From an uncultured Acidobacteriota bacterium (lineage in GTDB: Bacteria; Acidobacteriota; Thermoanaerobaculia; Multivoradales; UBA5704), in NCBI GenBank assembly GCA_963700145.1, contig OY969474.1, forward strand, positions 5,184,001-5,248,000: a stretch of 64,000 bases of DNA. Reading direction: 5' to 3'. The position numbers were made by a program, and so were the translations under genes. The number at the start of each line of letters is the position of its first letter. Position 1 is the first letter of the stretch. The notes under the pieces are model-generated. The model was not told where the DNA came from, ran no database searches, and saw nothing but the letters and a program-made list of their open reading frames with translations. Below, one piece after another: positions 10,378-35,355 of the stretch.

Positions 10378-10475
10378 GCCACCTAAGACACGGCGTGCCC
10401 TCCTTTGTAGGTCCAGCAGAGCCGTCGCACCGCCAAGCGCTAGAACCCTTCTTCGCGGTTGGTGTCTTTGATGGA

Positions 10476-12712: not shown

Positions 12713-14674
12713 CTACCGCAAGTAGCCGAGCGCTTCGAGTCGCCGCCGCTCTTCGTCGGAGAGCGGGCGCGGCTCGGCGCGGCCGACCGGGGCGCGGCGG
12801 GCGGCGAGCCAGCGGCGGAGGAGCTCGCCGAGCTCGCGCTCCGCGGGCAGGCCGCGGCCGGCGAGGCTGCGCTCCTCGCCCGGGTCGGCGCGGAGGTCGT
12901 AGAGGGCCGGGCCGTCGGGGAAGAAGCGGGTGTTGCCGCGCGAGAGGATCAGCTTGCGGTCCGGCGTGCGCACCATCACGCCGAGGCGCGCCGCGTGCTC
13001 GGCGAAGACGGCGCGGCGGCCGCGCCGGCCGGCGGCGGTGAGGGCGCGCAGGTCCTCGCCGTCTTGCGGCGGCGGCGGGAGCCCGGCGGCGGCGAGGAGG
13101 GTGGGGAAGAGGTCGATCGTCTGCACCAGGCCGCGCAGGCGGTGGCCGTGCGGTGGCGGGCCGCCGGCGGTCGGACCCGCGGACGCGGGCCAGCGGACCA
13201 TCAGCGGCACGTGGGTCGTCGTGTCGTGGAGCCCGACGTGACGGTAGAGCACGCCGTGCTCGCCGAGCTGCTCGCCGTGGTCGGAGACGAGGGCTACGAC
13301 CGTCGTTTCGAGGAGGCCGCGGCTGCCGAGGAAGTCGAGGAGGCGCCCGACCTGCCGGTCGAGGTAGGCGACCTCGCCGGCGTAAAGGTCGCGGTGGCCG
13401 CCGAGCACCGGCTCGTCGAAGGCGCGCGGGCCGGTGGGGCGGAAGGGCGTCCAGGCGGCGACCGGAGCGAGACCGTAGGGGAGGCTGGGGCGCGTGCCCA
13501 GGGCGTAGGGGCGCGGCGGGGTGTGCGGGGTGTGCGGGTCGAAGAGATGCACCCAGGCGAGCCAGCGCCGCTGCGCCCGCTCGGGGGCGGCGATCCAGTC
13601 CATCGCCATGTCCACCGCCAGCTCGGCGGCGAAGTGCTCGCCGGCCAGGGTGACGTCGGCGAAGCCCTGGCCGAGGCCGGAGTTGTGGTCGCCGAGGTGG
13701 CGCGCCGAGATCACGGCCAGGGTCTCGTAGCCGCGCCGCCGGAAGAGCTCCGCCAGCGTCGTGTGGGCGCGCGGCAGCGGCGTCGAGAGGTCGTAGACGC
13801 CGTGGTCCTTGCCGTAGAGGCCGGTGAAGATCGAGGCGAAGCTGGGGTTGGTGACGTTGAAGGCGGTGAAGGCGTCCATCCAGACGTCGCTCTCCGCCGC
13901 CAGCCGGTCCATGGCCGGCGTCAGGCTGGGGCCGCCCTGCCGCCAGGGGCCGAGGGCGTCGGCGCGTACGGTGTCGAGGCCGAGGACGAGGACGTTGGGG
14001 GCCGCGGGGTTGATCTGCCGGGGAGCGCCGGTCGCGGACGGCGGCGGCAGCGGCTTGCGGCCGTAGACCGCGGGGCTGCCCCAGAGGGCCGCCGGCGGCG
14101 GGGCGCCGGCCGGGGCGGCCGGCAGCGGCCCGAGCGGGCGCACCTCGAAGAGGAGGTCCACAGCCTTGCCGGCCCAAGGCGCGAGCGGCAGCTCGACCGC
14201 CGCCGGCGCGATCGGCGCCACCGGCGTCACCGGCCGGCGCCAGAGCTCGCGCTCGGCGCCGCCACGCTCGCCGCGATCCGCGACCGCCCGCGCGGTGACG
14301 CGGTAGGTGCAGGCGCAGCCGGCCTCGGCCCCGAGCGGCACGAAGGAGAGGTAAGGCTCCGTGCCGAGCGCCACCCGCCAGCGCAGGCGCGAGCCCGCGG
14401 TCTGCGCCACCGCCCGTACCTGCCCGGCGGTGCGGCGCGGGAAGGCGACGAGCTGCGAGGGCGGGATCTTCGCCATGTCCCGCACCTCGGCGGTGCCGAG
14501 GAACGAGATCGTCTGGGTCGAGGCCCGCAGCCACCGGCTCCCCGGTGGCGGCGCCTCGACGACCGGCTTCGCCAGCCAGAGGTCAACACGCTGCCACGGT
14601 AGCGGCAGCGGCGCCGCGGACTCGCGCGTGCAAGCGGCGAATAGCGCCAGCGCGAGAGCGAGGACGCGGCGCAT
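12713..14674 (-). CDS. Sulfatase-like/alkaline phosphatase superfamily lipoprotein
   Basis: Lipobox LFAAC; PNVLVLGLDTVRAD, TNPSFASIFTG, HLFDPHTP, SDHGE, LYDLRADPGE, LEALGYL. Confidence 0.85.
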   Translation of the reverse strand: MRRVLALALALFAACTRESAAPLPLPWQRVDLWLAKPVVEAPPPGSRWLRASTQTISFLGTAEVRDMAKIPPSQLVAFPRRTAGQVRAVAQTAGSRLRWRVALGTEPYLSFVPLGAEAGCACTYRVTARAVADRGERGGAERELWRRPVTPVAPIAPAAVELPLAPWAGKAVDLLFEVRPLGPLPAAPAGAPPPAALWGSPAVYGRKPLPPPSATGAPRQINPAAPNVLVLGLDTVRADALGPWRQGGPSLTPAMDRLAAESDVWMDAFTAFNVTNPSFASIFTGLYGKDHGVYDLSTPLPRAHTTLAELFRRRGYETLAVISARHLGDHNSGLGQGFADVTLAGEHFAAELAVDMAMDWIAAPERAQRRWLAWVHLFDPHTPHTPPRPYALGTRPSLPYGLAPVAAWTPFRPTGPRAFDEPVLGGHRDLYAGEVAYLDRQVGRLLDFLGSRGLLETTVVALVSDHGEQLGEHGVLYRHVGLHDTTTHVPLMVRWPASAGPTAGGPPPHGHRLRGLVQTIDLFPTLLAAAGLPPPPQDGEDLRALTAAGRRGRRAVFAEHAARLGVMVRTPDRKLILSRGNTRFFPDGPALYDLRADPGEERSLAGRGLPAERELGELLRRWLAARRAPVGRAEPRPLSDEERRRLEALGYLR

Positions 14675-14760: not shown

Positions 14761-15537
14761 TCAACTCGCCGCGGGCGCCTCGGCCGGCCCCTCGCCGGTG
14801 TTGCCGACGTCCCGCTCGAAGTCGTGGACCCAGACGTCGCGCAGGTAGACGCGCTGCGCGGGGGTGAGGGAGGCGAGGACTTCGGGCGCCACCGGGAAGC
14901 GGTGGAACTGCATGCCGACGTGGTTGTAGGAGTAGAAGACCGCGACGCGCGGCCGTTCGGCGTTCTGCCAGGGGGGGCCGCCGTGGGCGGTGTTCTCCGA
15001 GAAGACGACGACCGATCCGGCGGGGCAGCGGGGGCGGCAGAGGAAGGGGGAGCGCCGCTCCGGCTCGAGGAGCTGGTGCGCGGCCGGGACCGGGTAGTTC
15101 GCCTTGTGGCTGCCGGGGAGGAAGCAGGTGCCGCCGTCGTCTTCTCCGACGTCGTTGAGCTCGAAGACGACGCGGGTGAGACCGGAGCGGATGCGGCCGC
15201 CGGTGAAGTGGTAGTGGAAGAAGGGGTCGGGGATCGGACCGCCGTGGTGCAGGTTCATCGGGTGCCGCTGCCCCTTCTCGCGCCAGAGGACGTAGGCGTG
15301 GTCGAGGCGCAGGTAGGGGCCGATGATCTCGCGCAGCAGGTCGACGACGACCGGGTGGTCGATCAGCGCCGCCAGCTCGCCGCCGGGCACGGTGCGCGCG
15401 TGCGGCGGCAGCCTCTCCGGGGCGTGGACCATGAGGTCGATCTGCGCCTTCAGCCGCTCGCACTGCGCCGCCGGCAGCAAGTTCTCGACGACGAGGAAGC
15501 CGTTGAGGTCGAAGAGGAACTTCTGCTCCTCGGTCAC
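14761..15537 (-). CDS. Phytanoyl-CoA dioxygenase (PhyH) family Fe/2OG dioxygenase
   Basis: FDLNGFLVV, LHHGG, GGTCFLPGSHK, GSVVVFSENTAHGG, RVAVFYSY. Confidence 0.85.
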   Translation of the reverse strand: MTEEQKFLFDLNGFLVVENLLPAAQCERLKAQIDLMVHAPERLPPHARTVPGGELAALIDHPVVVDLLREIIGPYLRLDHAYVLWREKGQRHPMNLHHGGPIPDPFFHYHFTGGRIRSGLTRVVFELNDVGEDDGGTCFLPGSHKANYPVPAAHQLLEPERRSPFLCRPRCPAGSVVVFSENTAHGGPPWQNAERPRVAVFYSYNHVGMQFHRFPVAPEVLASLTPAQRVYLRDVWVHDFERDVGNTGEGPAEAPAAS

Positions 15538-17737: not shown

Positions 17738-20652
17738 GGCGCCGCCGCCAGCCGCAGGGCGCCGGGCGCGAGCGGCCGCGCCTCCTCGGCAGGGGCGGCG
17801 AACAGCTCGGGGTGATGCTTCCACTTGCGGTAGAAGAGGTCGAAGTTGTCGGCGAAGCTGTGGTTGCGCTGGCGGTTGTGGTGGACCACCGCGACCTGCC
17901 CGGCATAGAGGCAGCGGAAGCCCCGCCGCCGCGCCTTCAGGCAGAAGTCCACGTCCTCCATCTGGCTGCCGACGTAGACCTCGTCGAAGCCGCCGACCGC
18001 GCGCACGACGTGGCGGCGCACCAGCAGCAGCGTCGAGGGGAGCCACGGCACCTCGGCGAGGTAGTCGTACTGCCCCTGGTCGGGCGCGCCGAGCCCGCGC
18101 GGCGCCGGCCGCCAGCGGCGGTTGAAGTAGGGGTCGGCGCAGAAGATCGTCCCCTGGCCGTTGAGGATCTTCGGGGCGACCAGGTCGGCCTCCCGCTCGT
18201 GGAGGGCGGCGAGGAGGAGGTCGAACGTGTCGGGCGCCACGACCTCGACGTCGTCGTCGAGGTAGCAAACGTAGGGGCGGGCGCCGCGCGCCGAGCCCTC
18301 GTTCCGATTGGCGGCGCTGCTCTGCTGCCGCTCGATCACGTGCACGGCGTCGTCGGCGACGCCGCAGCGGGCGAGCGAGCGGAGGCAGCGCTCGAGCTGG
18401 CCGCGGGAGTGTCCCGGCCGCTGGCGGAAGAGCTGCAGCATCAGGTGCGGGCGGTCGTCCGGCGGCAGCGGCGGCAGTTGCAGGAGCAGGAGGTCGTGGT
18501 AGTTCCGGCGGTCGGGGCGGAAGGCGAGCTCGAGCCGCAGCTCGGCGGCGGCGGGGGCGGCGCCGCACACCGCCAGCGGGATCGAGAGGTCACGGAAGTA
18601 GAGCGACTCGCCGCGCAGCGCGTACACTCCGGCGGCGACCGGCTCGCCGGTCGAGCGGGAAACGACGCGAGCCTCCAGCGCACCGTGGAGCGACCCCTCG
18701 GAGGAGGCGACGACGACGATCCGGCTCAGCCGCCCGCAGCCGGGCGGGAGCGGCAGCGCGCAGCGGTTGCGGCCGTCGAGCTTCACCAGCACCGGCTCGA
18801 AGGCCGAGGGAGGGCGGCTGTAGGGGTAGGGGAGCTCGGCCTCGTCCTGCTCGTAGAAGGGGATCACGAAGTCGATCTCCTCCTGCCGGCCGCGCGGCTG
18901 CGGCAGCCGCCGGTAGCGGAAGGGCTGGACCTCGTTGCTCCGCGCGAGCGGCAGGCCGGCGCGCGCGATCGTCTTGTCGGCGAGCCGGCGCCACATCTCG
19001 AGCGCCCCCTCCGGCTTGAGCCAGAGGCTGGCCCGTCGGCCGTGCAGCCGGTAGTGATAGAGCACCTCGTCGAGCAGCTCGATCGAGGCCACCTCCTCGA
19101 CCTTGGTGAAGATGTCGCAGTCCTCGCCCGCGAACTTGAAGTCCGCGAACCCCTCCCACCCCGCCGTCCGCGCGTAGGCCGCGCGGCGGATCAGGTAGGG
19201 CTGGCAGTGGTTGTAGAGGTCGGTGACCATCCCGTCCTGGTAGTGGCGCGGCTCGAAGGGGAACCAGGGGTCCATCTCGACCGGCGCGCCGCTCTCGTCG
19301 ATGAACTCGCGGCGCGCGCGCACGATCCCGCACCACGGCCGGCTGCGCGCGCCGGCGAGGAACCGCTCGACGGCCTCGGCGGCAAGCACGTCGTCGTCGT
19401 CGAGGGGGAGGATGAACTCCCCGCCGGCGCGCTCGCTGAGCAGCCGGCGGGCGCGCGCGATCCCGCGGTTGGGCTCGAAGTGGACCGCGATCCGCGGGTG
19501 GTCCAGGGCCGCGAGCCGCTCGAGGATGCGGCGCGAGAGGTCGTCGCCGCCGTCCCAGAGCAGCGACAGCCGCCAGTCGGTCGAGGTCTGGTGGAGCGCC
19601 GACTCGACGCAAGGGATGAGGAAGCTCCCCTTGAAGACCGGCGTCTCGACCGAGACGGCGCCGGGCTCGACCGTGCCGATCTCTTCCATCCGCGCCCGCC
19701 AGGCGAGGAGCCGCTCGGCGAACGCCTCGATCTCCGCCTCCTGCTCCGCCGGCGGCAGGAGCGAGAGGTCGAGGTGCCGGAGGTCCGCGACGCGGAAGGG
19801 CGGCAGCGGCCCCTGCGCGTTCAGCCCGACGCGGTACAGCTCGTCGACCGCGGCGCCGGTGCGCCGGGGCCAGAAGAAGCGGCCGCGGAGCTGGCAGCTC
19901 CGGCAGACTTCGAGGGCGCCGGCGCGGCGAGCGTGCTGCCCCTTGCGCAGCAGGATCCGCTCCGGCGTGTCGGCGAAGAGGTTGCCGAGGTCGATTCCCT
20001 CGGCGCCGCCGTCGCGCGGGCAGAAGCGGACCGCGCCTGCGGCGTCGAGCGTCACGGTGTTGCCATAGATCTGGCAGCCGGTGGGGAGCGCCGCCAGCTC
20101 GGGCGGGAGGTCGGCCGCCCCCGGCGCGGCGGGCTCGGGGAGCGTGAAGAGGGGGGAGTCGACCAGCTCCGCGGGGATGCCGTAGTCGAGGAACGAGCGC
20201 ACCCTCCGGAAGCAGGCGCCGTCAGGCTCGGCAGGCTGCCAGAAGCCGAAGCGCAGGGCGGAGGAAGGGGTGGCGAGGAGGTGCTCGGCGAGCGCCTGCA
20301 GGGCCCGCTCGGTGCGCTCGTGGCCGCCGGGAGCGGCCTGCACCAGGAGCCGTCTCGGCCCATCGTCTTCGAGCCGGGCGAGGAGCTCGCGGGTCACCTG
20401 CTCGGGCGCGAGGAGGAGATAGACCGCGCTCGGCACCGCGGCGCGCGCGGCGAGGAAGGCGAGACAGCGGTCCCCTTCGCCGCGCTCGGTGGGGAGGAAG
20501 GCGTAGAGATCGACTCCTTCCTCCTCCTGGTCAGCCGCGACCAGCCAGGCGAGCAGCGCCGCGAGGCGCGCCCGCCCTTCGGCGGCGTAGAGGCTGCGCT
20601 CGTCCGCCGCGTCGTCCGCGGCCCCCCGCCGCGGCAGCAGGATCAGGTCCAT
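17734..20652 (-). CDS. Multidomain SPASM-like + two GT2 glycosyltransferase domains, 972 aa
   Basis: CQIYGNTVTLDAAGAVRFCP...GNL...CRSC; VSVETPVFKG...PLDDDD...GEDCD; second GT2 YLDDD...GGFDE...EDVDFC. Confidence 0.8.
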   Translation of the reverse strand: MDLILLPRRGAADDAADERSLYAAEGRARLAALLAWLVAADQEEEGVDLYAFLPTERGEGDRCLAFLAARAAVPSAVYLLLAPEQVTRELLARLEDDGPRRLLVQAAPGGHERTERALQALAEHLLATPSSALRFGFWQPAEPDGACFRRVRSFLDYGIPAELVDSPLFTLPEPAAPGAADLPPELAALPTGCQIYGNTVTLDAAGAVRFCPRDGGAEGIDLGNLFADTPERILLRKGQHARRAGALEVCRSCQLRGRFFWPRRTGAAVDELYRVGLNAQGPLPPFRVADLRHLDLSLLPPAEQEAEIEAFAERLLAWRARMEEIGTVEPGAVSVETPVFKGSFLIPCVESALHQTSTDWRLSLLWDGGDDLSRRILERLAALDHPRIAVHFEPNRGIARARRLLSERAGGEFILPLDDDDVLAAEAVERFLAGARSRPWCGIVRARREFIDESGAPVEMDPWFPFEPRHYQDGMVTDLYNHCQPYLIRRAAYARTAGWEGFADFKFAGEDCDIFTKVEEVASIELLDEVLYHYRLHGRRASLWLKPEGALEMWRRLADKTIARAGLPLARSNEVQPFRYRRLPQPRGRQEEIDFVIPFYEQDEAELPYPYSRPPSAFEPVLVKLDGRNRCALPLPPGCGRLSRIVVVASSEGSLHGALEARVVSRSTGEPVAAGVYALRGESLYFRDLSIPLAVCGAAPAAAELRLELAFRPDRRNYHDLLLLQLPPLPPDDRPHLMLQLFRQRPGHSRGQLERCLRSLARCGVADDAVHVIERQQSSAANRNEGSARGARPYVCYLDDDVEVVAPDTFDLLLAALHEREADLVAPKILNGQGTIFCADPYFNRRWRPAPRGLGAPDQGQYDYLAEVPWLPSTLLLVRRHVVRAVGGFDEVYVGSQMEDVDFCLKARRRGFRCLYAGQVAVVHHNRQRNHSFADNFDLFYRKWKHHPELFAAPAEEARPLAPGALRLAAAP

Positions 20653-21676: not shown

Positions 21677-23184
21677 TAGACGCTCTCGAGCAGGTGGGAG
21701 AGGTCGTGGAGGTAGACCCGGGGGTCGCGCAAGAGCGGGTCGCGCAGCAGCTCGCGCAGCTCGCCGTGCTCGGGGTGGTCCGGGGCCTGCACCGCCCGGC
21801 GAGCGTGGTCCGCGGCGGAGTAGGTCCCCCAGTTGACGAGCTGCTTGAAGCAGACGACGTCGCAGCCCAGCTTCCGCCCCAGCTCGGCGAAGGCCCGCAT
21901 CTCGCGGAAGTTGTTGGCCTGGACGACGAAGTGCAGCTCGAAGCGCGCCAGCTCGCCGGCGGCGCGCAGACCGCCGAGGAAGCGGAGGTTCGCCAGGAGC
22001 TGCGCGAAGTCGCCGCCGCGGTTGGCGGCATAGGTCGCCGGCGTCGCGGCGTCGACCGAGACGTCGACGCTGTCGACCGCGTCGTGGCAGATCGAGCGCC
22101 AGGTCTCCTCGTTCAGCAGCAGGCCGTTGGTCGAGAGGGTGATGCGCAGCCCGGGGATCGCCGCCGGGTCGAAAGTGCGCAGGAACGAGAGGTAGAGGCG
22201 GCTGCCGAAGGGATCGCCGCTGCCGGTGATGATCAGCCGCTCGGCGTCGCGCAGGTGGCGGCCGAGGACCCGCTCGTGGATGACGCTCGCCCGCTGCCGC
22301 GCCTTCCCCCGGAGCACGATGAAGTCGCCGCGGCAGGAGGGGCAGGCGAGGTTGCAGGAGCGGTCGTAGGAGAGGTTCATGATGCGCGGCCCGTGGTCGA
22401 GGCGGGTGATCCGCTCGGCGATGATCCGCCGGTGCTCGGGATGGGTGACCTCCTCGACGCGCGGCAGGGCGCGCTGCTGCAGCAGCCCGCACGTCGACTC
22501 GCAGCAGTAGGCGAAGGTGCCGTCGAGGATCGACTCGCGGACGGCGACCGCAGCGGGCGAGTTCCAGGCGCTCATCAGGTCCTGCCCGTCGAGCCGGCCG
22601 ACGCTCGTCGGCAGGAGCTGCGGGCAGCAGAGGTAGAGCTGGCCGAGGGGGTCGATCTGGGCGTACTGGAACGGCTGCGCGCAGAAGAGGCCGGCGAACT
22701 TGGCGCCGTGCTCCTCGGCCGCCGGCAGCCCGCTCACGGCCACCGCCTCGACCGGCGGCGGCAGCCCCGCCAGCAGCTCCTTGAGCCGGGCGCCGAGCGG
22801 GTCGCTCGCCGTCTCCACCTGGAGCAGGCTGTCGAGCCCGAGGCCGGCGAGGGCGCCCCGCTGCGCCGCGTCGAGGCCGGCGGCCAGCCGCTCGCCGGCC
22901 CGCGCCGCGATCCGCCCCCCCTCCTCGAGATAGCTCGCGCCCGCCCCCGCCGCGCGCTCGCCGCCCAAGTAGGCGAGGAAGGCCCCCTCCAGCGCCGCCG
23001 CCTCCAGCTCCGGCGCGTCGTTCCACCGCCGCGCGAGGAAGGCGAGCGGCGAGGACTTGCCGTCGGCGGTGCCCCGCCCGCAGACCGCGGCGAACGCTTC
23101 CTTGGCGGCGGTCAGCAGGGCCTCGGACTGGAGCGCCTGCTCAGGGTCGAGGCGCAGCGACGAGCGGAAGGTCGTCCATTCCAT
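21676..23184 (-). CDS. Radical SAM protein with SPASM/twitch-like segment N-terminal to the CxxxCxxC domain
   Basis: CAQPFQYAQIDPLGQLYLCCP...CCESTC, then CNLACPSC, GSGDPF, STNGLLL, VSVDAA. Confidence 0.85.
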   Translation of the reverse strand: MEWTTFRSSLRLDPEQALQSEALLTAAKEAFAAVCGRGTADGKSSPLAFLARRWNDAPELEAAALEGAFLAYLGGERAAGAGASYLEEGGRIAARAGERLAAGLDAAQRGALAGLGLDSLLQVETASDPLGARLKELLAGLPPPVEAVAVSGLPAAEEHGAKFAGLFCAQPFQYAQIDPLGQLYLCCPQLLPTSVGRLDGQDLMSAWNSPAAVAVRESILDGTFAYCCESTCGLLQQRALPRVEEVTHPEHRRIIAERITRLDHGPRIMNLSYDRSCNLACPSCRGDFIVLRGKARQRASVIHERVLGRHLRDAERLIITGSGDPFGSRLYLSFLRTFDPAAIPGLRITLSTNGLLLNEETWRSICHDAVDSVDVSVDAATPATYAANRGGDFAQLLANLRFLGGLRAAGELARFELHFVVQANNFREMRAFAELGRKLGCDVVCFKQLVNWGTYSAADHARRAVQAPDHPEHGELRELLRDPLLRDPRVYLHDLSHLLESV

Positions 23185-25630
23185 GACCGGTCCCCGGCCA
23201 GATCGCGAGCCCGCGCGGGGCGTCGTCCCGCTCGCGCGAGGGGCAGAAGTCGCAGCCCCGGCAGAAGTCCCGCTGCTCCCCCCGGACGTAGCCGAGGAGC
23301 TTCTCGAAGTGCATCTGCTGCAGGCTTTTCCGGCGCAGGTTGCCGTACGAGGTCTGCCGCCGGTAGTCCATGGCGCAGAGCCGCATCTCGCCGTCGGCGG
23401 AGATGAACATCAGCGAGCGGGCGATCTTGCACAGGTTGTCCTCTTCCGCGTGGTCGCGGAAGATGTCCACCGCCACCAGCGGGTCGTCGCGGTAGGCGGC
23501 GGCGAAGCCGTCGAGAGACGCCGACTTGATCTCCGCCCCCAGCAGCCCGGCCCGGTTGTTGACCGGGTGCAGCCAGATCTGCGACGGGCCGCGCGGCCGC
23601 CAGTACTCGACGAACGCCGCGACCTCGTGCTGGTTGGCGGTGCAGACGACGAAGCTGGCCTGCACCCGCACTTGCGGCCAGGCGCGGCGGCGCAGCTCGA
23701 GGATCTCCTCCAGGTTGGCGACGATGCGGTCGAAGCGTTTCAGCTTCATCACCCGCCGGTGGGTCTCGGCGGTGGCGGCGTTGAGGCTGAAGTTGAAGCT
23801 CGCCAGCCCCAGCGCGGCCAGCTCCTCGAAGCGCCGCGGGGTGAGGAGCTCGCCGTTCGTGGTCATGGCGACGAAGGCGCCGGCCTCGGCCAGCGTGCTG
23901 ACGATGCGGTCGAGCTGCGGGTGGAGTGTCGACTCGCCGATGCCGCAGAGCACGACCTGCCGCCGTTTCGGCTCCCCCCGCAGCTCGTCGGCGAGCCGCT
24001 CGACGACCTCCAGGTCGAGGTAGCGCTTGCGGTCGGGCATCACCTCGCGCGGGCAGAAGCCGCAGACCGCGTTGCAGGCCGAGGTCACCTCCAGGTCGAT
24101 CGTCACGTCGCTCAGGTCGCCGAGCGTCTGGTACTGGAAGAAGTCGGTCGAGCAGACCACCTCGGGGCCACGCTCCGCGCCGGCGAAGGCGGTGACCGCG
24201 CGCTGGAAGTTGCCGCGCAGCTGGAAGCGGCGGTCCATCCGACGCCAGGCCGGCGGGCAGAAGCGGGTCTCCAGGTTCTGGAAGTGCGCCATCGCCTCGT
24301 CGACCGCGAAGCGGAGCGTCAGGTTCTTGGTCGACAGCCGGCGCAGGTAGAGGGCCCGGTCGAGCAGGCAGGTCTCGATCCCGGCGCGGTCGAGCTTGTG
24401 GAAGAGGATCGTGTCCTCGCCCGCGCGGTGGAGGTCCTCGTCCCACTCGTACCCGTCCACCTCGGCGAGCGCCGCCCGCGCCACCGCGTAGGGCTGGGTG
24501 ATCTCCAGTGGGTCGTTGGGGATGCCGTCGATCAGGTAGCGCTGGCGTGGCGGCAGCTCCTCCGCGACCAGCCCGACGATCCGCGCGCCGGCCCGGAAGC
24601 AGCGCGCCTCGGGGTGGCGGCGGGCGGCGGCGGCGAAGACCGCCAAGGCGTCGGGCAGCAGCATGTCGTCGTCGTCGATGGTGACGACGAAGTCGCCGCC
24701 GGCCCGCTCGGCCAGGCTCCGCCGGGTCGGTCCGGTCCCCCGGTTCTCCTGCCAGGTGCAGGCGATGCGCGGGTCGGCGAAGTCGGCGAGGATGGCGCGG
24801 ATCCGGGCCGCCGCGGCGGGAGGCGGGCCGTCGACGGCGAGCAGCAGCTCCCAGTGGGGCCAGGTCTGATCGCGCACCGAGCGCACCATGTCGGCCAGGA
24901 AGTCCGGCTTGAAGACCGGGCAGACGACGCTGAAGCGCGGGAAGGGCGCCGCGGCGGTCGCCGGGTCGGCGGGCGGGGGAACGGGGAGGAAGCGGCTGCG
25001 GCTCTCCAGCCGGAGCTGTGGCGGGACGGCCGCCGCCGCGTCGCGCTGGCGGCAATCGGCGTAGTCGGCGCGCAACGCCTCCCGGCGGTGGTACACCAGC
25101 TCCCCCGCCCAGGCGCGGGAGTCGAAGCGCGGCTCGAAGCCGTTGACGACGAGCGCCGGCCGCCCCGTCGCCCCGAGCTCCCGCGCGAGCGCGAGCAGGG
25201 CGAACTCCGGCGTCCGGCAGGTCAGGGCCGCCGAGCCGCTGAGCGCGGCGCGGTCGGCGAGGCAGAGCCAGGAGGGGAGGAGAGGCGCGGCGGCCGGGCA
25301 GTCGGCGCGCTCCGCCGCCAGGCCGAGCACGCTGCGCAGGGCCGGAGTCCAGAAGGTGAGCGCCGGAGCGTCCGGCCGCGCCGCCGCCGCTGCCACGAGA
25401 AGGCGCCAGCCGCTTTCGTCGAGCGCGACCGCGTCGTCGAGGAACAGGACGCGGCGGGCCGCGCCCTCGAGGAGCCGCGAGCGGACCGCCGCGAGGTCGT
25501 CGCCCAGCCGGTAGCGGACGACCTCGCCGCAGCCCCCTTCGCCCGGGGCCGGGAGCCGCGCCGCCGGCGCGGCGCGGCCGCCGCAGCCTTCCCGCAGGAA
25601 GACGTCGATCCGCTCCGGCGCGCCGCTCAC
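23141..25630 (-). CDS. GT2 glycosyltransferase-radical SAM-SPASM fusion, about 829 aa
   Basis: FSVVCPVFK...TIDDDD; CNAVCGFC, GIGES, TTNGELL; CKIARSLMFISADGEMRLCAMD...CRGC; GTGA overlap start. Confidence 0.85.
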   Translation of the reverse strand: MSGAPERIDVFLREGCGGRAAPAARLPAPGEGGCGEVVRYRLGDDLAAVRSRLLEGAARRVLFLDDAVALDESGWRLLVAAAAARPDAPALTFWTPALRSVLGLAAERADCPAAAPLLPSWLCLADRAALSGSAALTCRTPEFALLALARELGATGRPALVVNGFEPRFDSRAWAGELVYHRREALRADYADCRQRDAAAAVPPQLRLESRSRFLPVPPPADPATAAAPFPRFSVVCPVFKPDFLADMVRSVRDQTWPHWELLLAVDGPPPAAAARIRAILADFADPRIACTWQENRGTGPTRRSLAERAGGDFVVTIDDDDMLLPDALAVFAAAARRHPEARCFRAGARIVGLVAEELPPRQRYLIDGIPNDPLEITQPYAVARAALAEVDGYEWDEDLHRAGEDTILFHKLDRAGIETCLLDRALYLRRLSTKNLTLRFAVDEAMAHFQNLETRFCPPAWRRMDRRFQLRGNFQRAVTAFAGAERGPEVVCSTDFFQYQTLGDLSDVTIDLEVTSACNAVCGFCPREVMPDRKRYLDLEVVERLADELRGEPKRRQVVLCGIGESTLHPQLDRIVSTLAEAGAFVAMTTNGELLTPRRFEELAALGLASFNFSLNAATAETHRRVMKLKRFDRIVANLEEILELRRRAWPQVRVQASFVVCTANQHEVAAFVEYWRPRGPSQIWLHPVNNRAGLLGAEIKSASLDGFAAAYRDDPLVAVDIFRDHAEEDNLCKIARSLMFISADGEMRLCAMDYRRQTSYGNLRRKSLQQMHFEKLLGYVRGEQRDFCRGCDFCPSRERDDAPRGLAIWPGTGHGMDDLPLVAAPRP

Positions 25631-26478
25631 AAAGGGGCGACCTCGCCGGCGTAATCCATCCTCTGGCGCAGGTCGTCGTGCTCCGGCATGTGCCCCCACT
25701 CCGCCTCGAAGATCCGGAAGTTGTGGAAGACGATGTCGCTCTTCTCGTCCTGCGTCTTCTCGGTGTAGGTGGCGTGCCCCAAGTGGTAGACGAAGCAGTC
25801 CTCGCGCACCACCAGGCGGTAGCCGAGCTGCCGCAACTGACAGGAGAGGGCGAGGTCCTCGAAGTAGCCGTGGCGGTAGGCGAGGCCGAAGAGTCCCACG
25901 CGCTCGAAGAGCCGGCGTTCGAGCGCCAGGCACATGCCGGTCAGGTAGGGCGCCTCGGTGATCGTCCCGGCCGGGACCGGGCGGAGGCGGTGGAACTGCC
26001 GGTCGAGGTCCGCGCCGGGGTCTTCGACCGCGTCCGGGAGCAAGCCGGCGAGCGCCGGCCGGTACTGGAAGAGGTCCGTGGGATGGTTCGACACCGGCGC
26101 CGCGGCGCCCACCCGCGGGTCGACCATCGCCTCCAGCAGCCGGAGGTCGAACTCGGGCGTGACCACCGTGTCGCTGTTGAGGAAGAAGACGTACGGCCGC
26201 CGGCCGGCGCAGAAGCCCGCGCACAGGGCCTCCTTGTAGCCCCGGTTCTCGGGCAGCGTCACCACCTCGATCGGCCGCCCGGCCCGCGCCACGAACTCGT
26301 CGACGGCGCGCCGCTCCCGCGGCCGCGACCCGTCGTCGATCAGGACGACGTGATGCCGTCTCCCGATGGCCGCGAGCAGGGCGCGCAGGCAGCGGAGGAG
26401 GACCTCGTGCTTGTTGAAGAAAGGCACGAGGATGTCCGCCTCGGGTGGAGCCGGCCGCGCCGGCCAGCGGCCGGTCAC
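25627..26478 (-). CDS. Glycosyltransferase family 2
   Basis: DILVPFFN, LIDDGS, FLNSDT, GYFEDLALS, VYHLGH. Confidence 0.9.
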   Translation of the reverse strand: MTGRWPARPAPPEADILVPFFNKHEVLLRCLRALLAAIGRRHHVVLIDDGSRPRERRAVDEFVARAGRPIEVVTLPENRGYKEALCAGFCAGRRPYVFFLNSDTVVTPEFDLRLLEAMVDPRVGAAAPVSNHPTDLFQYRPALAGLLPDAVEDPGADLDRQFHRLRPVPAGTITEAPYLTGMCLALERRLFERVGLFGLAYRHGYFEDLALSCQLRQLGYRLVVREDCFVYHLGHATYTEKTQDEKSDIVFHNFRIFEAEWGHMPEHDDLRQRMDYAGEVAPL

Positions 26479-26714
26479 TTGCCCTTGGCTTGCTGGGCCT
26501 CGAGCTGCTTCGCCAACTCCCTCATCTGCACGTGCTTGGCGATGACGACCTCGGCGAGCTTCTTCATCTGCAGGTGCTTGGCGATGACGACCTCGGCGAG
26601 CTTCTTCATCTGTACGTGCTTGGCGATGATCACCTCGGCCACTTTCTTCGACCGCAAGGCCTGGGCGCGCTCGAGAAGCTGCTCCTCGCTCAGGTACTCA
26701 CCTTTGTTGCTCAT
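26475..26714 (-). CDS. 79-aa peptide with three tandem 14-aa repeats; candidate RiPP precursor
   Basis: ATG with AGGGG RBS, overlapping both neighbours; KKVAEVIIAKHVQM / KKLAEVVIAKHLQM / KKLAEVVIAKHVQM; codons almost all end in G/C. Confidence 0.75.
   Translation of the reverse strand: MSNKGEYLSEEQLLERAQALRSKKVAEVIIAKHVQMKKLAEVVIAKHLQMKKLAEVVIAKHVQMRELAKQLEAQQAKGK
26523..26648. repeat. 42-bp tandem repeat x3 within the small peptide gene
   Basis: catctg recurs at 26523, 26565, 26607 with near-identical units. Confidence 0.95.
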
Positions 26715-27909
26715 CGTGCCCCCTTTCGTCGGATCGGTTGGTTCGTGGAACGGTCAGGATCTCCTCGACGACGGCGCGCGGCTCCGGCAGGGCGGAGCGC
26801 TGCCGCCGCCAGCGGCGGCAGTTCCGCTTCAAGGCGGCGCGGCGCTCGTCGTCGAACAGCAGCGCGGCCGCACGGCCGACCACCTCGGTCTCATTCAAGA
26901 CTTCCGCCACTTCGTAGCAGCCGGCGATCTCGAAGCGCCCCTCGAGCGCGTCGGAGATCTCGCACATGCCGTACGGGAAGACGCGGTAGGGAAAAAAGCG
27001 GCCCGCCAGGAAACTGCCGGCCTCCAGGCCGCGACTCGCCTCGGAGTTGGCGAGCAGGAGGGCCGGCGTGCCGAGATGGAAGGCGTCGACGATGCAGGAG
27101 AGGAGCGAGTCGGCGAGGTAGAGGTCGGCGGCGCCGACCAACGCCAGGAACTCCTCGTAGGGGACGAACGGCACGTGCCGCACGTGCGCCAGGCCGGCCA
27201 GCTCGGGGAGGGGCCGCGGCATCAGCAGGAAGACCTGGGCGCGGTCCAGCGGCGGGCGCGAGAGCAGCCCGCCGAGGTGCCGGTAGTAGCCGGGGAAGTG
27301 CTCCTGGATGTAGTCGAAGCGGTTGCGGGAGACGGCGTAGACCAGCGACCGTCTGTCCGGGTCGCCGCCGTGGCGGGCGAGGGTCTCGGCGCGCGGGCGA
27401 CGGCGCGCCGCGGCGTAGGCGCGGCGGGCGCGGAAGTGGCGGGCGTTGGGGCTCGTGGGTTCGAGCGACATGTAGCGCAGCGCCCACACCCAGTGCGGCA
27501 CGGCGGCGAAGCGCTTCGGCTCGGCGCTGCCCGGCAGGCGCAGGTCGAAGCCGATCTCGAAGGGATCGAACGACAGCACCGGCACGCCGAGGTCGTGCGG
27601 CTCGAGCGGGAAGGAGCCGAAGGTCGCCCCCTCCTGGCCGGGGAGGTTCCAGAAGCCGTTACAGGCGACGACGACGGCGTCCGCCGCGAAGTGGTCGACG
27701 GCGGCGAGGATCGTCTCCCGGACGTGGACCGCGGGGGCGAAGAAGAACCGCTCGTCGCGCGGATCGAGGAACGGCGCCAGGCGCGGGCTGAGGACGAACC
27801 CGTAGCGGTAACGCCGGCGCCCCAGGTCCGCGATCCAGGCCTGGCAGAGCGACAGGTCGCCCATGTTGGAGCCGGTCGTGACGACGAACAGCAGCTTCCT
27901 CATCCACAC
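26698..27909 (-). CDS. Putative GT-B-fold glycosyltransferase-like protein (possibly DUF6365-like)
   Basis: KLLFVV N-terminal strand, FVPYEEFLALVGAADLYL, AFHLGTPALLL resemble a GT-B C-terminal lobe; family name from recollection only. Confidence 0.55.
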   Translation of the reverse strand: MWMRKLLFVVTTGSNMGDLSLCQAWIADLGRRRYRYGFVLSPRLAPFLDPRDERFFFAPAVHVRETILAAVDHFAADAVVVACNGFWNLPGQEGATFGSFPLEPHDLGVPVLSFDPFEIGFDLRLPGSAEPKRFAAVPHWVWALRYMSLEPTSPNARHFRARRAYAAARRRPRAETLARHGGDPDRRSLVYAVSRNRFDYIQEHFPGYYRHLGGLLSRPPLDRAQVFLLMPRPLPELAGLAHVRHVPFVPYEEFLALVGAADLYLADSLLSCIVDAFHLGTPALLLANSEASRGLEAGSFLAGRFFPYRVFPYGMCEISDALEGRFEIAGCYEVAEVLNETEVVGRAAALLFDDERRAALKRNCRRWRRQRSALPEPRAVVEEILTVPRTNRSDERGHDEQQR

Positions 27910-28039: not shown

Positions 28040-28909
28040 TCACGCCGGCGGCTGGCGCCGCCAGCGCTTGTGCCACCAGACCCACTGCTCGGGGCGGCGG
28101 CGGACCTGGGATTCGATGGCGGCGGTCATCAGGGCGGTGGCGGCGGTCTCGTCGGGGAGGAGGTCAAGAGCCGGGAGGCAGCGGATCAAGTGGGTGCCGT
28201 CCTCCCGGCGCTCGCCGAAGATCGGCACGGCCGTCACCCCCTGGCGCAACGCGATCCGCGCCGCCCCGACCGGCGTAAAGGCAGGGCGGCCGAAGAAGGG
28301 GACCCAGACGCCTTCGACGCGGGTGTCTTGGTCGATCAGGATGGCGAGCGCGCCGCCCTTGCGCAGCACCTCGAGGAGCTGGCGGCCGGCGGCGCGGCCG
28401 CCGCGGGCGATGGTGGTGGCGCCCATCGCGCCGCGCACGGCGAGCAGCAGCTCCTGGAGCGACGGGTCTTCGATCTCACGCGCCGCGGCCGCCAGCGGCA
28501 GGCCCTGCAGCGTGAAGGCGCCGGCGATCAGCTCCCAGTTGCCGCAGTGGCCGGTGACCCCGAGCACCGCCCGCCCGCCGGCGCGCGCCGCCTCGATCTG
28601 CTCCCAGCCTTCGATCGTGAGGCGCGGGGCCAGCTCACCGACCCCGCGCCGCGTCAGGTGAAGCAGCTCGGTCAGGTTCATCCCCTGATTCAGGAAGGCG
28701 CCGCGGGCGATGGCGCGTCGCTCGGCGGCGGAGCGCTCGGGAAAGGCGAGGGCGAGATGGTCGAGGGCGCGCCGCCGGTCGCGGCGCGACAGCGCCCAGC
28801 CGAGCCGGCCGATGCCGCGCCCCAGCCGCTGCGCGCCGCCCCACGAGAGAACGCCGCAGACGACGGCGAGGCCGCGCAGGGCCAGGCCGAGAGGAGAGGG
28901 GATCGGCAA
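28040..28909 (-). CDS. Lipid A biosynthesis (LpxL/HtrB-like) acyltransferase
   Basis: TGHCGNWEL, LIDQD, VPFFGRPA, PEQWVWWHKRW; start approximate. Confidence 0.85.
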   Translation of the reverse strand: MPIPSPLGLALRGLAVVCGVLSWGGAQRLGRGIGRLGWALSRRDRRRALDHLALAFPERSAAERRAIARGAFLNQGMNLTELLHLTRRGVGELAPRLTIEGWEQIEAARAGGRAVLGVTGHCGNWELIAGAFTLQGLPLAAAAREIEDPSLQELLLAVRGAMGATTIARGGRAAGRQLLEVLRKGGALAILIDQDTRVEGVWVPFFGRPAFTPVGAARIALRQGVTAVPIFGERREDGTHLIRCLPALDLLPDETAATALMTAAIESQVRRRPEQWVWWHKRWRRQPPA

Positions 28910-28978
28910 GCGGAGCGAAGCCTAGCAGCGCGGAATGGCATGGGCGGCCGGAGGGTTCTCCGGCGTATGCCTCGGCGT

Positions 28979-29851
28979 ATGCGTTCGCGTCCCCTTGGTC
29001 TGCTCTTCCTCCTGCTCGGCGCCGGGCTCGTGCTGCCCCGCCCGCTCGCGGCCGCGGTCGACCGCTGGACACCCACCGGGCCCGACGTCGCCGCCGTGCC
29101 CTCCCTCGCCGTCGGCCCGACGGGCGTGGTCTACGCCGGGACCGCGGAGTTCGGCGTCTTCCGCAGCACCGACCGCGGCGCGCGCTGGAGCGCCATGCGC
29201 GGTGCGTCGAGCTTTTCGGACGTGCAGGAGCTGGCGCTCGATCCCGGCGACCCCCGGACCGTCTACGCCCTGCGCAGGTTCAGCGGCCTCTTCCGCAGCC
29301 GCGACGGCGGCCCCTGGCTGTACGTCGGGCCGGGGGGGTCGCCGTCGAGCGCCGACGCCTTCGCGGTCGCCCCTTCCGATCCGAACCGCCTCTACCTGCT
29401 GAACGGTCCCACCCTGTACGTGAGCCGGGACCGCGGAGCGACCTGGGTCACCCTGGTGGACTACGTCCCGGGGGTCCAGGTGGCCGACTCGAACACCCTG
29501 CACGTCGATCCGCGCGACCCGGACGTCGTCCTGGTCGGCAGCGATTTCAACGGGGTGATCCGCTCGACCGACGGCGGCCTCACCTGGCAGTTCGGCCAGG
29601 GGGAGGGCGGGACCCGCGGACCGGTGCTCGTCGTCGCCCTGGCGCTCGACCCCCGCAACCCGGACGTCCAGTACACCGGCAGCCAGGGGGAGGGGATCTG
29701 GAAGAGCACGGATGGCGGCAGGGTCTGGCGGCAGGTGCTGGCCTTTCCCGGCTTCGGCGACGTGCCGGTCGCCCTCGCCGTCGACCCGGCGCAGAGCCGG
29801 CGGGTCTACGCCGCGGTGCTGCGCGCGGTCCCGTCGTCGCCGCACGGGTGA
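28979..29851 (+). CDS. Secreted BNR/Asp-box beta-propeller protein, N-terminal part
   Basis: Signal peptide; repeated SxDxGxxW motifs (RSTDRGARW, SRDRGATW, RSTDGGLTW, KSTDGGRVW). Confidence 0.75.
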   Translation: MRSRPLGLLFLLLGAGLVLPRPLAAAVDRWTPTGPDVAAVPSLAVGPTGVVYAGTAEFGVFRSTDRGARWSAMRGASSFSDVQELALDPGDPRTVYALRRFSGLFRSRDGGPWLYVGPGGSPSSADAFAVAPSDPNRLYLLNGPTLYVSRDRGATWVTLVDYVPGVQVADSNTLHVDPRDPDVVLVGSDFNGVIRSTDGGLTWQFGQGEGGTRGPVLVVALALDPRNPDVQYTGSQGEGIWKSTDGGRVWRQVLAFPGFGDVPVALAVDPAQSRRVYAAVLRAVPSSPHG

Positions 29852-30387
29852 CGTTCGCCCGCGACGGACGGGTCAACGGCCTGGTGATCCACCCTCTCCG
29901 CCCCGCGTCGGTGTTCGCCGGGGCGACGACCGGCTTCTTCCGCAGCCGTGACGCGGGGGAGCGCTGGGTCCAGCTGGGCGACGGCCTGCCGGGAGTGTGC
30001 GGCAGGCAGGACACCGTCGTCCTGGATCCGTTCGCCCGCAACACCTTCTACGCCTTGTCGTGCCACGCGACCCGGCTGGTGTTCAAGAGCACCGACTCGG
30101 GCGCGCACTGGGCGCCGACCGGTCTCACCCACGACGGCACGAACCTGTCGCTCGACGTGCTGCTGGCCGACCCGCGCCGGCGCGGCGCCGTCTACGCCGG
30201 CGGGTCGGAGGGACTCTTCGCCACCGGCGACGGCGGCGCGAGCTGGCGGCGGTTCGACAGCGGGCTGCCGAAGGAGCTGTTCGGTGTGCCGTGGATCATG
30301 AGCCTGGCGGCCGACCCGCGCGTGCCCGGCCGGATCTACGCCGGCCTGCGCGGCGGTGGGCTGTTCACGATGCTGCGCAGCGACTAG
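29848..30387 (+). CDS. BNR/Asp-box protein, C-terminal part (split or frameshifted gene)
   Basis: RSRDAGERW, KSTDSGAHW, TGDGGASW, IYAGLRGGGLF; no signal peptide. Confidence 0.6.
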   Translation: MTFARDGRVNGLVIHPLRPASVFAGATTGFFRSRDAGERWVQLGDGLPGVCGRQDTVVLDPFARNTFYALSCHATRLVFKSTDSGAHWAPTGLTHDGTNLSLDVLLADPRRRGAVYAGGSEGLFATGDGGASWRRFDSGLPKELFGVPWIMSLAADPRVPGRIYAGLRGGGLFTMLRSD

Positions 30388-30935
30388 GAAGCTCCGTCGA
30401 CCCAGCCGGCGACCAGCCGATCCCAGTCGCCGCGGGCGCGCAGGACGGCCTCGATCATCTCGCGTACCGCCTCCCGCCCCCCGTCCCGTTCGAGCACTCG
30501 GTGGACCCGCGCCCGCACCTCGGCGACGGCGTCGGCCGGCGCGAAGGAGAGGCCGCAGCGGGCGAGGACCGGGAGGTCGAGGAGGTCGTCGCCGGCGTAG
30601 GCCACGCGCGCCGGGTCGGCGCCGTGCTCGGCCAGGAACTCGCCGAAGGCGGCCCCCTTGTCGGCGCGGTCGAGGATGACGGCGTCGAGCCCCAGCTCGC
30701 GGGCGCGCGTCGAGAGCGCCGCGGCGCCGCGCCCGGAGAGAATCCCGACCTTGAGCCCCGCGCGCTGCGCCAGCTTGAGCGCCAGCCCGTCGCGGACGTG
30801 GAACACCTTGAGCTCCTCGCCGCCGGCGCCGTAGGTCAGCAGCCCGTCCGTCAGCACCCCGTCGACGTCGAAGAGCAGCCACTCCAGCGCCCGCGCGCGG
30901 CGGGTGAACTCCTCTTCGGACAGCGCGTCGCTCAG
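30384..30935 (-). CDS. kdsC: KDO 8-phosphate phosphatase (HAD)
   Basis: FDVDGVLTDG, FHVRDG, GDDLLDLP, GGREAVRE; start uncertain. Confidence 0.9.
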   Translation of the reverse strand: MSDALSEEEFTRRARALEWLLFDVDGVLTDGLLTYGAGGEELKVFHVRDGLALKLAQRAGLKVGILSGRGAAALSTRARELGLDAVILDRADKGAAFGEFLAEHGADPARVAYAGDDLLDLPVLARCGLSFAPADAVAEVRARVHRVLERDGGREAVREMIEAVLRARGDWDRLVAGWVDGAS

Positions 30936-31920
30936 AACAGCTCCAGCTTCCACAGGTCGTGGAGGTGCACGATCCCTTCGAGCCGCCCGGCGGCGTCGCA
31001 GACGAAGAGGGAGGTGATGCGGTGCTCCTCCATCTCGTTGAGGGCGGCCGAGGCCAGCTCCTCGCCGGCGATCGTGCGCGGGCTGCGATGCATGCACTCG
31101 CCGGCGGTGCGGCGGAGGACGTTCTCGTCGTCGCGCTCCAGCAACCGTCGCAGGTCGCCGTCCGAGATGCAGCCGAGGAGCTTCCCCTCGCCGTCCACGA
31201 CCGCGGTGATCCCGAGCTTCTTGGCCGACATCTCGTAGATCGCCTCGCGCATCGGCGTCTCGGGGCCGACGCGCGGCAGCGCCTCGCCGGCGTGCATCAG
31301 CTCGGTGACCTTGAGGAGCCGCTTGCCGATCCGGCCGGCGGGGTGGAGGCGCGCGAAGTCCTCGCGGGTGAAGCCGCGCGCCTCCAAGAGGGCCATGGCG
31401 AGGGCGTCGCCGAGCGCCAGCATCGCCGTCGTCGAGGCGGTGGGCGCGAGGTTGAGCGGGCAGGCCTCGCGGTCGATCGCCACCGAGAGGTGGGCGTCGG
31501 CGTGGCGGGCGAGCGGGCTCTCGCCGCTGCCGGTCATGGCGACGAGCGGCACGCCGAGGCGCTTGAGGGTCTGCACCAGCCGCAGCAGCTCCTCGGTCGT
31601 CCCCGAGTAGGAGGCGGCGAGCACCACGTCCCCCTCGACGATCGCGCCGAGGTCGCCGTGCACCGCCTCGGCGGGGTGGAGGAAGAGGGCCGGCGTGCCG
31701 GTCGAGGTCAGCGTCGCCGCCACCTTGCGCATCACGATGCCGCTCTTCCCCATGCCGGTGCAGACGACCCGCCCCTGGCAGGCGCGCAGCAGCTCGACCG
31801 CGCGGTCGAAGCTCTCGTCGAGCTGCGCGAGCAGGCCGCGGATCGCCGCCGCCTCGGTCTCCAGCACCTCGACGGCCACCTCGCGCGGCGGGCGGCCCGG
31901 CACAGGTTCCACAGCCCGCT

Positions 31921-31924
<4 letters not shown>
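30932..31924 (-). CDS. kdsD: Arabinose-5-phosphate isomerase (KpsF/GutQ, SIS + CBS)
   Basis: GMGKSG, HPAEAVHGDLG, EACPLNLAPTAST, CBS pair. Confidence 0.95.

Positions 31925-35355
<3,431 letters not shown>

Follow-up and report, generated by a model that had tools for sequence, protein, structure and literature searches.

A small histidine-ladder protein encoded beside a DUF6365 glycosyltransferase-like protein in an Acidobacteriota operon: a candidate coiled-coil partner

What role is played by a protein of only 79 residues whose gene is lodged between glycosyltransferase genes? This question was raised by a stretch of 64,000 nucleotides from an uncultured Acidobacteriota bacterium (assembly GCA_963700145.1, contig OY969474.1, forward-strand positions 5,184,001 to 5,248,000), the whole of which is called the window hereafter. 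The translation of the small gene runs from MSNKGEYLSEEQLLERAQALRS through three 14-residue units, KKVAEVIIAKHVQM, KKLAEVVIAKHLQM and KKLAEVVIAKHVQM, to RELAKQLEAQQAKGK. A previous sequence-only reading had taken these parts for the leader, the three cores and the follower of a precursor of the RiPP type (peptides made on the ribosome and modified after translation), to be altered by enzymes encoded nearby. The open reading frame (ORF), its strand and its translation were found to be exactly as that reading had written them, and no Ser, Thr or Cys was indeed present within the three units. The division into leader, cores and follower is, however, not the one retained here. We favour, with slightly less than an even chance of being right and partly by analogy with known auxiliary proteins, the view that the small protein is a folded coiled coil that serves as non-enzymatic partner or auxiliary subunit to the DUF6365 protein encoded upstream, itself a putative glycosyltransferase of GT-B fold.

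Judged from its sequence features, the 79-codon ORF is a real gene under selection. Its GC content at codon positions 1, 2 and 3 is 0.62, 0.25 and 0.91, neighbouring genes being alike, and in a sliding frame plot its frame takes over across exactly its own stretch. A Shine-Dalgarno-like AAGGGGG run lies 4-5 nt ahead of the ATG. Both ends of the gene overlap its neighbours: 17 nt at the start are shared with the stop region of the DUF6365 gene, and the TGA overlaps with the GTG start of the GT2 gene that follows. The three units are encoded by a 42-bp tandem DNA repeat (26522-26639; 2.8 copies, 93% matches, score 208 in Tandem Repeats Finder). Four genomes of the same genus (G001-G004) were compared with the one that holds the window (G000), and in G003 the small protein shows 92% identity: the five nucleotide differences within the repeats are all synonymous, while the flanks of the repeats carry five amino-acid replacements and a two-codon indel. 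Units 2 and 3 share the same two synonymous differences between G000 and G003 (GTC/GTG and ATC/ATT, window 26523-26606), which points to homogenisation of the units within each genome by concerted evolution. The three units of distant relatives have become different from one another. A chance open frame over a tandem repeat in GC-rich DNA would find some justification in the long chance ORFs that are common on both strands of this 72% GC window. It is nevertheless barely credible in view of a codon-position signal that occurs in the right frame only, of the synonymous nature of every repeat difference against G003, and of relatives at the protein level that range down to 31-42% identity with diverged repeats. 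A scan for promoters and terminators gave one weak hairpin (26443-26427), not above the level of shuffled sequences.

These relatives are few. A first search yielded two proteins, and a 4-sequence profile run exhaustively against 1.84 billion representatives gave seven matches at E <= 0.001, of which P0002, P0004, P0006 and P0008 were true relatives and P0005, P0007 and P0009 were unrelated repeat or coiled-coil proteins. A 7-sequence profile then gave nine matches, and cluster look-ups added further members, so that 17 sequences were examined: 11 with a single module (79-93 aa) and six with a double module (156-187 aa). A close relative of the window protein comes from a metagenome-assembled genome (MAG) of Thermoanaerobaculia; other named sources are a Xanthobacteraceae MAG and two Pedobacter strains (WP_193424284.1 and WP_406826875.1, in Pedobacter genomes).

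The most constant feature of the family is a ladder of three His at exact 14-residue spacing, present at least once in all 17 sequences, with one natural variant in which Tyr replaces His at the middle site. Of the 45 distinct units, 44 have His at position 11, 42 have V, I or L at position 7 and 25 end in Met (position 14); Leu or Ala usually occupy position 3, and position 13 is Gln in 17 and Lys in 16. Position 1 is Ala in 19 units and Lys in only nine, and position 2 is Lys in 17, so that the dibasic KK with which each unit was said to begin is restricted to the close relatives of the window protein. The LSEEQL motif, likened earlier to the helix of RiPP leaders, is not kept either, its equivalents in relatives being LTDEQK, LNEVQR, INAEKA and LNDLDI. 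Variation in copy number had been suggested as a check: each module has three His units in 17 of 17 sequences, and no 42-nt indel or joint was found in four soil metagenome runs, where one contig covers the whole small ORF with its three units. The supposed follower is, on the evidence of the alignment, a fourth, degenerate 14-residue unit. Its Gln75 is invariant in the 7-sequence alignment, as are M1, H33, M36, E41, H47, M50 and H61. Near the N-terminus, a [G/S]-x-Tyr-[L/I] motif (Tyr7 in the window protein) is found in 16 of the 17 sequences.

From a structural point of view, AlphaFold2 run on a 4-sequence alignment predicts a single helix covering residues 10-78 (69 residues, mean pLDDT 88.7); residues 1-3 have a pLDDT below 50, and the conserved Tyr lies in an N-terminal segment left unstructured. 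Positions 3, 4, 7, 8, 11 and 14 of each unit line up in one seam. In a 3.5-residue register, His11 and Ala4 would occupy 'a' positions and V/I/L7 and Met14 'd' positions, and a single hydrophobic seam would carry His/Met layers at intervals of 14 residues, or about 21 Å. With His at 'a', and V/I/L and Met at 'd', the helix should pair or bundle as a coiled coil. The protein would thus be a helix about 100 Å long, made of three two-heptad units and the degenerate fourth behind a short flexible tail, and its paired or bundled core would hold three His/Met layers about 21 Å apart. Both a continuous helix and a heptad-type hydrophobic periodicity, as expected of a coiled coil or helical bundle, are present in this predicted structure, and the existence of fused double modules suggests side-by-side packing of two such helices. 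The caveat entered in the sequence-only reading, namely that 14 residues equal two heptads and could denote a structural coiled coil, is therefore its better interpretation.

The upstream neighbour matches the Pfam family DUF6365 in its C-terminal half only (50.1 bits for a cut-off of 32.5). A search for its relatives gave 13 foreign proteins at 41-69% identity, with Pyrinomonadaceae, Xanthobacteraceae, Saprospiraceae and Crocinitomix among the named sources, and the PF19892 label was obtained on 14 of 14 relatives. The model built from these 14 sequences (pLDDT 88.7, pTM 0.88) has a GT-B fold, with matches in the PDB at E about 1e-11 and TM 0.5-0.6; the best of these are UDP-GlcNAc 2-epimerase and the GT1 enzymes CalG3, CalG1, CalG4, SnogD, VinC, the elaiophylin glycosyltransferase and those of the OleD type. 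A relative of the small protein and a DUF6365 protein were found together in six contigs. In two of them, those of G000 and G003, the genes are adjacent and overlap; the other four are listed in Table 1. The link to modifying enzymes drawn by the earlier reading is borne out to this extent. As for the homologues independent of such enzymes that would have told against that reading, none was encountered where the context was visible, and the neighbourhood of the Pedobacter proteins with respect to DUF6365 was not seen. DUF6365 is the sole partner seen together with the small gene in other lineages. Radical SAM genes were met alongside it in G000 and G003 only. These two genomes both hold the small gene and the radical SAM gene 5, and searches of G001 (81% complete), G002 and G004 revealed neither of the two. 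Since the DUF6365 protein was detected in none of 400 other genomes sampled across the phylum and in none of 400 sampled across the class, the cluster is a rare accessory island.

A folded coiled coil working with DUF6365 fits these results because the number and spacing of the units are fixed, the helix is continuous, His and Met fall in its core, double modules exist and the gene is coupled to that of a GT-B protein. From a mechanistic point of view, the small protein would be a dedicated scaffold or auxiliary subunit of the DUF6365 enzyme encoded directly upstream, the two would be co-produced via coupled translation, and the operon would act in the cytoplasm, building and tailoring an oligosaccharide-type product. 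The small protein may oligomerise, may bind DUF6365 physically and may hold a ligand or a metal at its His layers. Some natural-product GT1 glycosyltransferases need auxiliary proteins of the DesVIII/DesVII or EryCII/EryCIII type. The present pair resembles them, by analogy and not by homology, in that a non-catalytic protein, presumably in complex with the enzyme, is encoded next to a GT-B enzyme in a sugar cluster, and the best structural matches of DUF6365 include such GT1 enzymes. The known auxiliaries are, on the other hand, proteins of about 400 aa resembling cytochromes P450, to which the present single helix of 79 aa and its His ladder bear no detectable relation.

Several points weigh against this partnership. 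Binding between the two proteins is proposed only; a complex prediction gave a score of 0.00, which counts neither for nor against binding. An auxiliary role alone gives no reason for three invariant, exactly spaced His. The first sugar acceptor of the operon is not evident, which leaves room for the small protein in that role, and SPASM-type radical SAM enzymes often act on peptides. As regards the genomic link, four of the six co-occurrences were inferred from matching contig size, source or accession numbers and not from DNA; the two genes of the Xanthobacteraceae MAG are nine accession numbers apart, hence non-adjacent in a changed gene order; and nine of the 13 foreign DUF6365 relatives could be matched by contig to no small-protein relative. 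Independent occurrence is conceivable, for instance for the Pedobacter double-module forms, which were seen as proteins without their gene neighbourhood.

The other enzymes of the operon tell something of its chemistry. The small gene is the second gene of a tightly overlapping minus-strand operon (Table 1), in which glycosyltransferase-type domains number at least six. BtrN (E 1e-6) and cytosylglucuronate decarboxylase (3e-5) are the only solved relatives of the radical SAM domain in the fusion protein, while the second radical SAM protein has none at E <= 0.001. The kinase matches amicoumacin kinase at 3e-36, and the shorter GT2 protein has only weak, generic GT2 structure matches. The only solved relatives of the oxygenase are 4XC9/4XCA/4ZPI and 4XCB (E 1e-7), which correspond to HygX, the orthoester-forming oxygenase of hygromycin B biosynthesis, according to a review (PMC13374393). 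Taken together, the operon enzymes point to sugar-type small-molecule tailoring and away from peptide chemistry, through similarities that are remote except for the kinase; their resemblance is to enzymes that act on sugars and not on peptides.

No membrane-span-like segment was found in any operon protein from DUF6365 to PhyH, and no protease, exporter, lipid-priming transferase, flippase or PqqD-like domain was detected among the annotated proteins of the operon. Because it is soluble and rich in glycosyltransferases without a lipid-priming transferase, flippase or exporter, such a system needs some acceptor. The small protein could itself fill this role, kept whole as a glycogenin-like primer or carrier and not cleaved as a precursor. 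DUF6365 would then add the first sugar, most plausibly on the Tyr of the N-terminal tail or on a ladder His. Elongation of the chain would fall to the GT2 and GT4 enzymes, and its tailoring to the deacetylase, the radical SAM enzymes, the oxygenase and the kinase. This possibility is doubtful, though it deserves to be taken seriously: besides the make-up of the operon, it is in line with the location of the small gene, flanked by glycosyltransferase genes whose stop and start codons overlap with its own, with the conserved Tyr motif in a segment unstructured in AlphaFold2, and with three equivalent invariant His, which would suit three equivalent modification events. However, the exact 14-residue spacing and the hydrophobic register indicate a folded helix under structural constraint and not merely a set of modification sites, the closest solved relatives of the tailoring enzymes work on small-molecule sugars, and the gene is translationally coupled, whereas a consumed substrate would usually be expressed separately and at a high level. 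To our knowledge, no bacterium is known to use such priming through His or Tyr. As in glycogenin-type primers, a conserved Tyr is found in a flexible segment, among cytoplasmic glycosyltransferases and without a lipid-priming enzyme; glycogenin, however, belongs to GT8 and glucosylates a Tyr of its own, whereas no enzyme fold is present in the small protein, whose modification is hypothetical. A combined scheme can also be drawn, in which an oligomeric His-ladder coiled coil would be glycosylated by DUF6365 on Tyr or a ladder His and the chain extended and tailored on the protein. Such protein-templated sugar assembly seems rather unlikely to us, and we know of no described bacterial counterpart to an assembly line of this type. 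Were the small protein indeed an acceptor, the operon would encode an unusual protein-primed glycan pathway.

The presence of two radical SAM/SPASM proteins within the operon brings back the peptide precursor in another form. One or both of these enzymes would cross-link or modify each His-x-(Gln/Lys) unit in a triceptide-like manner, with cleavage at KK as an option. Radical SAM enzymes form cyclophanes on aromatic-x-x motifs, His included. A small ORF amid radical SAM/SPASM genes, with a repeated motif and an invariant aromatic residue, is a feature shared with triceptide and multi-core precursors, and the His of position 11 is followed two residues on by Gln or Lys in most units, a pattern which alone is weak evidence. 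We give little credence to this scheme. Unlike such precursors, the small protein has a fixed number and spacing of repeats, a continuous predicted helix and no conserved cleavage sites, the KK pair included, and no leader-binding domain, protease or exporter was found around it. PqqD and the RiPP recognition element (RRE) gave no Pfam or NCBIfam match, unassigned N-terminal regions being included at E <= 1, although divergent RREs can escape hidden Markov models. Neither radical SAM protein reached the cut-off of an NCBIfam peptide-maturase model (for the fusion protein, among the best 25 of 46 matches); their best matches, all far below cut-off, were MoaA and maturase models for a tungsten cofactor and for metalloenzymes. 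Solved relatives are limited to BtrN and a sugar-nucleoside decarboxylase, enzymes closest to sugar chemistry, one radical SAM domain is fused to a GT2 domain, and in other lineages the small gene is linked to the glycosyltransferase and not to a radical SAM enzyme. The second radical SAM enzyme has relatives at 34-38% identity in G122 and G129. Both genomes belong to the phylum sample and yielded no DUF6365 relative, and the neighbourhoods of these radical SAM relatives appear unrelated, as judged from ORF lists alone. As variable repeat number, conserved cleavage sites, processing or export apparatus and peptide-type maturases were not found, the leader, cores and follower are not supported. 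Mycofactocin biosynthesis was considered and rejected, with 57.5 and 68.1 bits for MftF (cut-off 280), 31.6 and 28 bits for MftC (cut-off 265) and no MftA-like C-terminus in the small protein. PADLOC returned just generic radical SAM similarity to viperins.

The core His and Met call for another alternative, in which the small protein would be an independent helical bundle binding a metal, haem or another ligand, for example sequestering the operon product or a metal, and would simply lie in the cluster, playing no direct part alongside DUF6365. With His at 'a' and Met at 'd', at 21 Å intervals, the helix would offer classic metal or haem ligands, and retention of Met in 25 of the 45 units would be expected if His is the key ligand. 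The double modules of Pedobacter also agree with this idea, no DUF6365 relative from there being among the 14 matches. The likeness extends to His-bearing bundles such as cytochrome b helices and designed bundles, with core His 14 residues (about 21 Å) apart and Met one turn away. In contrast to metal or haem bundles, the small protein has no sequence relation to solved proteins, is predicted to be cytoplasmic and is linked to a glycosyltransferase. Independence from the cluster fits poorly with reading frames that overlap on both sides and with six co-occurrences with DUF6365 that include Thermoanaerobaculia and Xanthobacteraceae, one of them in an altered gene order. The ferritin-like family DUF305, with its HH motif, which we had presumed to be a candidate family, and the likewise ferritin-like DUF892, the name given by the source to the Pedobacter relative P0032, were unrelated, with hhalign probabilities of 0.3% and 0.1% against the small protein family. 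An independent binder is, on the whole, improbable.

The partnership with DUF6365, which we still prefer, has to be set against the clusters that the operon enzymes recall. As in aminoglycoside/orthosomycin-type clusters, a PIG-L deacetylase and several glycosyltransferases are present, and the best or only solved relatives of the operon enzymes come from butirosin (BtrN) and hygromycin B (HygX) biosynthesis or are amicoumacin kinase. Unlike in those clusters, no inosose synthase or aminotransferase was seen among the annotated proteins of the operon, and the similarities are remote (E 1e-6 to 1e-7), the kinase excepted. We know of no cluster of this type with a His-ladder helical protein. If the small protein is a partner of DUF6365, it would represent a new kind of accessory protein for DUF6365 glycosyltransferases, a family without known function, and would be the mark of a sugar natural-product operon that is rare and horizontally scattered among soil bacteria. 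The enzymes combined in this operon (a BtrN-like radical SAM enzyme, a HygX-like oxygenase, an antibiotic-type kinase) suggest that its glycoside is an unexplored one. Whether the small protein is a partner or an acceptor, the invariant His ladder at two-heptad spacing offers a clear handle for mutagenesis, mass spectrometry and tests of metal or ligand binding.

The small protein belongs to an undescribed family, for which no known family, solved structure or paper was matched. None of its relatives falls in a described family in word-based and exhaustive profile searches, no Pfam match was obtained at E <= 10 for the 11 members scanned, and the window protein gave no match in NCBIfam or PADLOC. 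It had no match in plasmids or viral contigs and no usable match in the protein atlas, and its matches to solved structures were only chance coiled coils such as GCN4 and a coronavirus heptad repeat. A metagenome alignment scan found no relative. In a separate scan with P0001 as query, L004-L006, among the matches listed, reflected chance similarity to the C-terminus of a longer unrelated protein. L008 (in G289) was a low-complexity chance match. The name DUF6365 was absent from the literature searched, and no similar system was seen among the papers listed there. One relative, P0011 (81 aa), was found with an identical sequence on 31 metagenome contigs, unusually many for so rare a family, and it had no match in viral contigs.

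Table 1. Features of the small gene and its operon (window positions), and contigs of other origin that carry both a DUF6365 protein and a relative of the small protein.
Feature	Position or contig	Strand	Remarks
Small gene, 79 aa (79 codons)	26475..26714	minus	coding signal, predicted helix, relatives
Repeat unit 1, aa 23-36, KKVAEVIIAKHVQM	26607..26648	minus	His33, Met36
Repeat unit 2, aa 37-50	26565..26606	minus	Glu41, His47, Met50
Repeat unit 3, aa 51-64	26523..26564	minus	His61
Degenerate fourth unit, aa 65-78, RELAKQLEAQQAKG	26481..26522	minus	Gln75 at the His position
DUF6365 protein, GT-B glycosyltransferase-like fold	26698..27903	minus	end overlaps start of small gene
GT2 glycosyltransferase, 283 aa	25627..26478	minus	GTG overlaps TGA of small gene
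Fusion protein, 829 aa: N-terminal region, GT2 domain, radical SAM/SPASM domain	23141..25630	minus	true start GTG at 25630
Radical SAM protein (gene 5), N-terminal SPASM/twitch-type domain, 502 aa	21676..23184	minus	
PIG-L family de-N-acetylase, 337 aa	20663..21676	minus	
Protein with two GT2 domains, 972 aa	17734..20652	minus	weak SPASM-like Cys motif near N-terminus
GT4 (GT-B) glycosyltransferase, 390 aa	16565..17737	minus	found only via frame plot
APH-family kinase, 344 aa	15534..16568	minus	best solved relative amicoumacin kinase
PhyH-family Fe/2-oxoglutarate oxygenase	14761..15537	minus	only solved relatives HygX entries
Sulfatase/alkaline-phosphatase-superfamily protein, lipoprotein-like signal sequence	12713..14674	minus	operon membership uncertain (~85-nt gap)
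P0018 (DUF6365) and P0001 (small protein)	6205-nt JGI contig		
P0019 (DUF6365) and P0010 (small protein)	1736-nt ENA contig		barely room for both genes
P0024 (DUF6365) and double-module P0004	99629-nt ENA contig		
P0022 = MGA8496780 (DUF6365) and P0036 = MGA8496789 (small protein)	27708-nt contig, Xanthobacteraceae MAG		

Some further observations concern the distal genes of the operon and its surroundings. The GT4 gene was hidden within a longer chance ORF and was exposed by the GC3 frame plot (Pfam 'GT4-conflict' match, 7.6e-14). The SPASM-like Cys motif of the double-GT2 protein (Pfam SPASM, E 0.08) lies at window positions 19891-20076, aa 193-254, in a protein without a radical SAM domain. 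The amicoumacin-kinase-like gene stands two genes before that of the exported lipoprotein of the alkaline-phosphatase superfamily. As an idea only, the kinase could phosphorylate a product within the cell and the lipoprotein could remove the phosphate outside it, a cycle like that of antibiotic self-protection. The active-site motif of the latter protein is T-N-P-S-F, where sulfatases have C/S-x-P-x-R.

The operon adjoins lipid A and Kdo genes (28040-35081), among them a lipid A acyltransferase with a Pfam match; other ORFs of this region were read as KdsC, KpsF, KdsA and CTP synthase from their translations alone. The neighbourhood of the operon in G003 is similar but shorter. This setting is in keeping with an inserted accessory island. 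On the far side of the operon, a 1269-aa protein is encoded at 3747-7556, and its N-terminal domain is of the bacterial tubulin-like type (Tubulin_2, 2.3e-46). Its gene adjoins that of a 922-aa von Willebrand A-domain protein (7609-10377), and the pair is divergent from a TAXI/RCK channel gene at 10395-12701.

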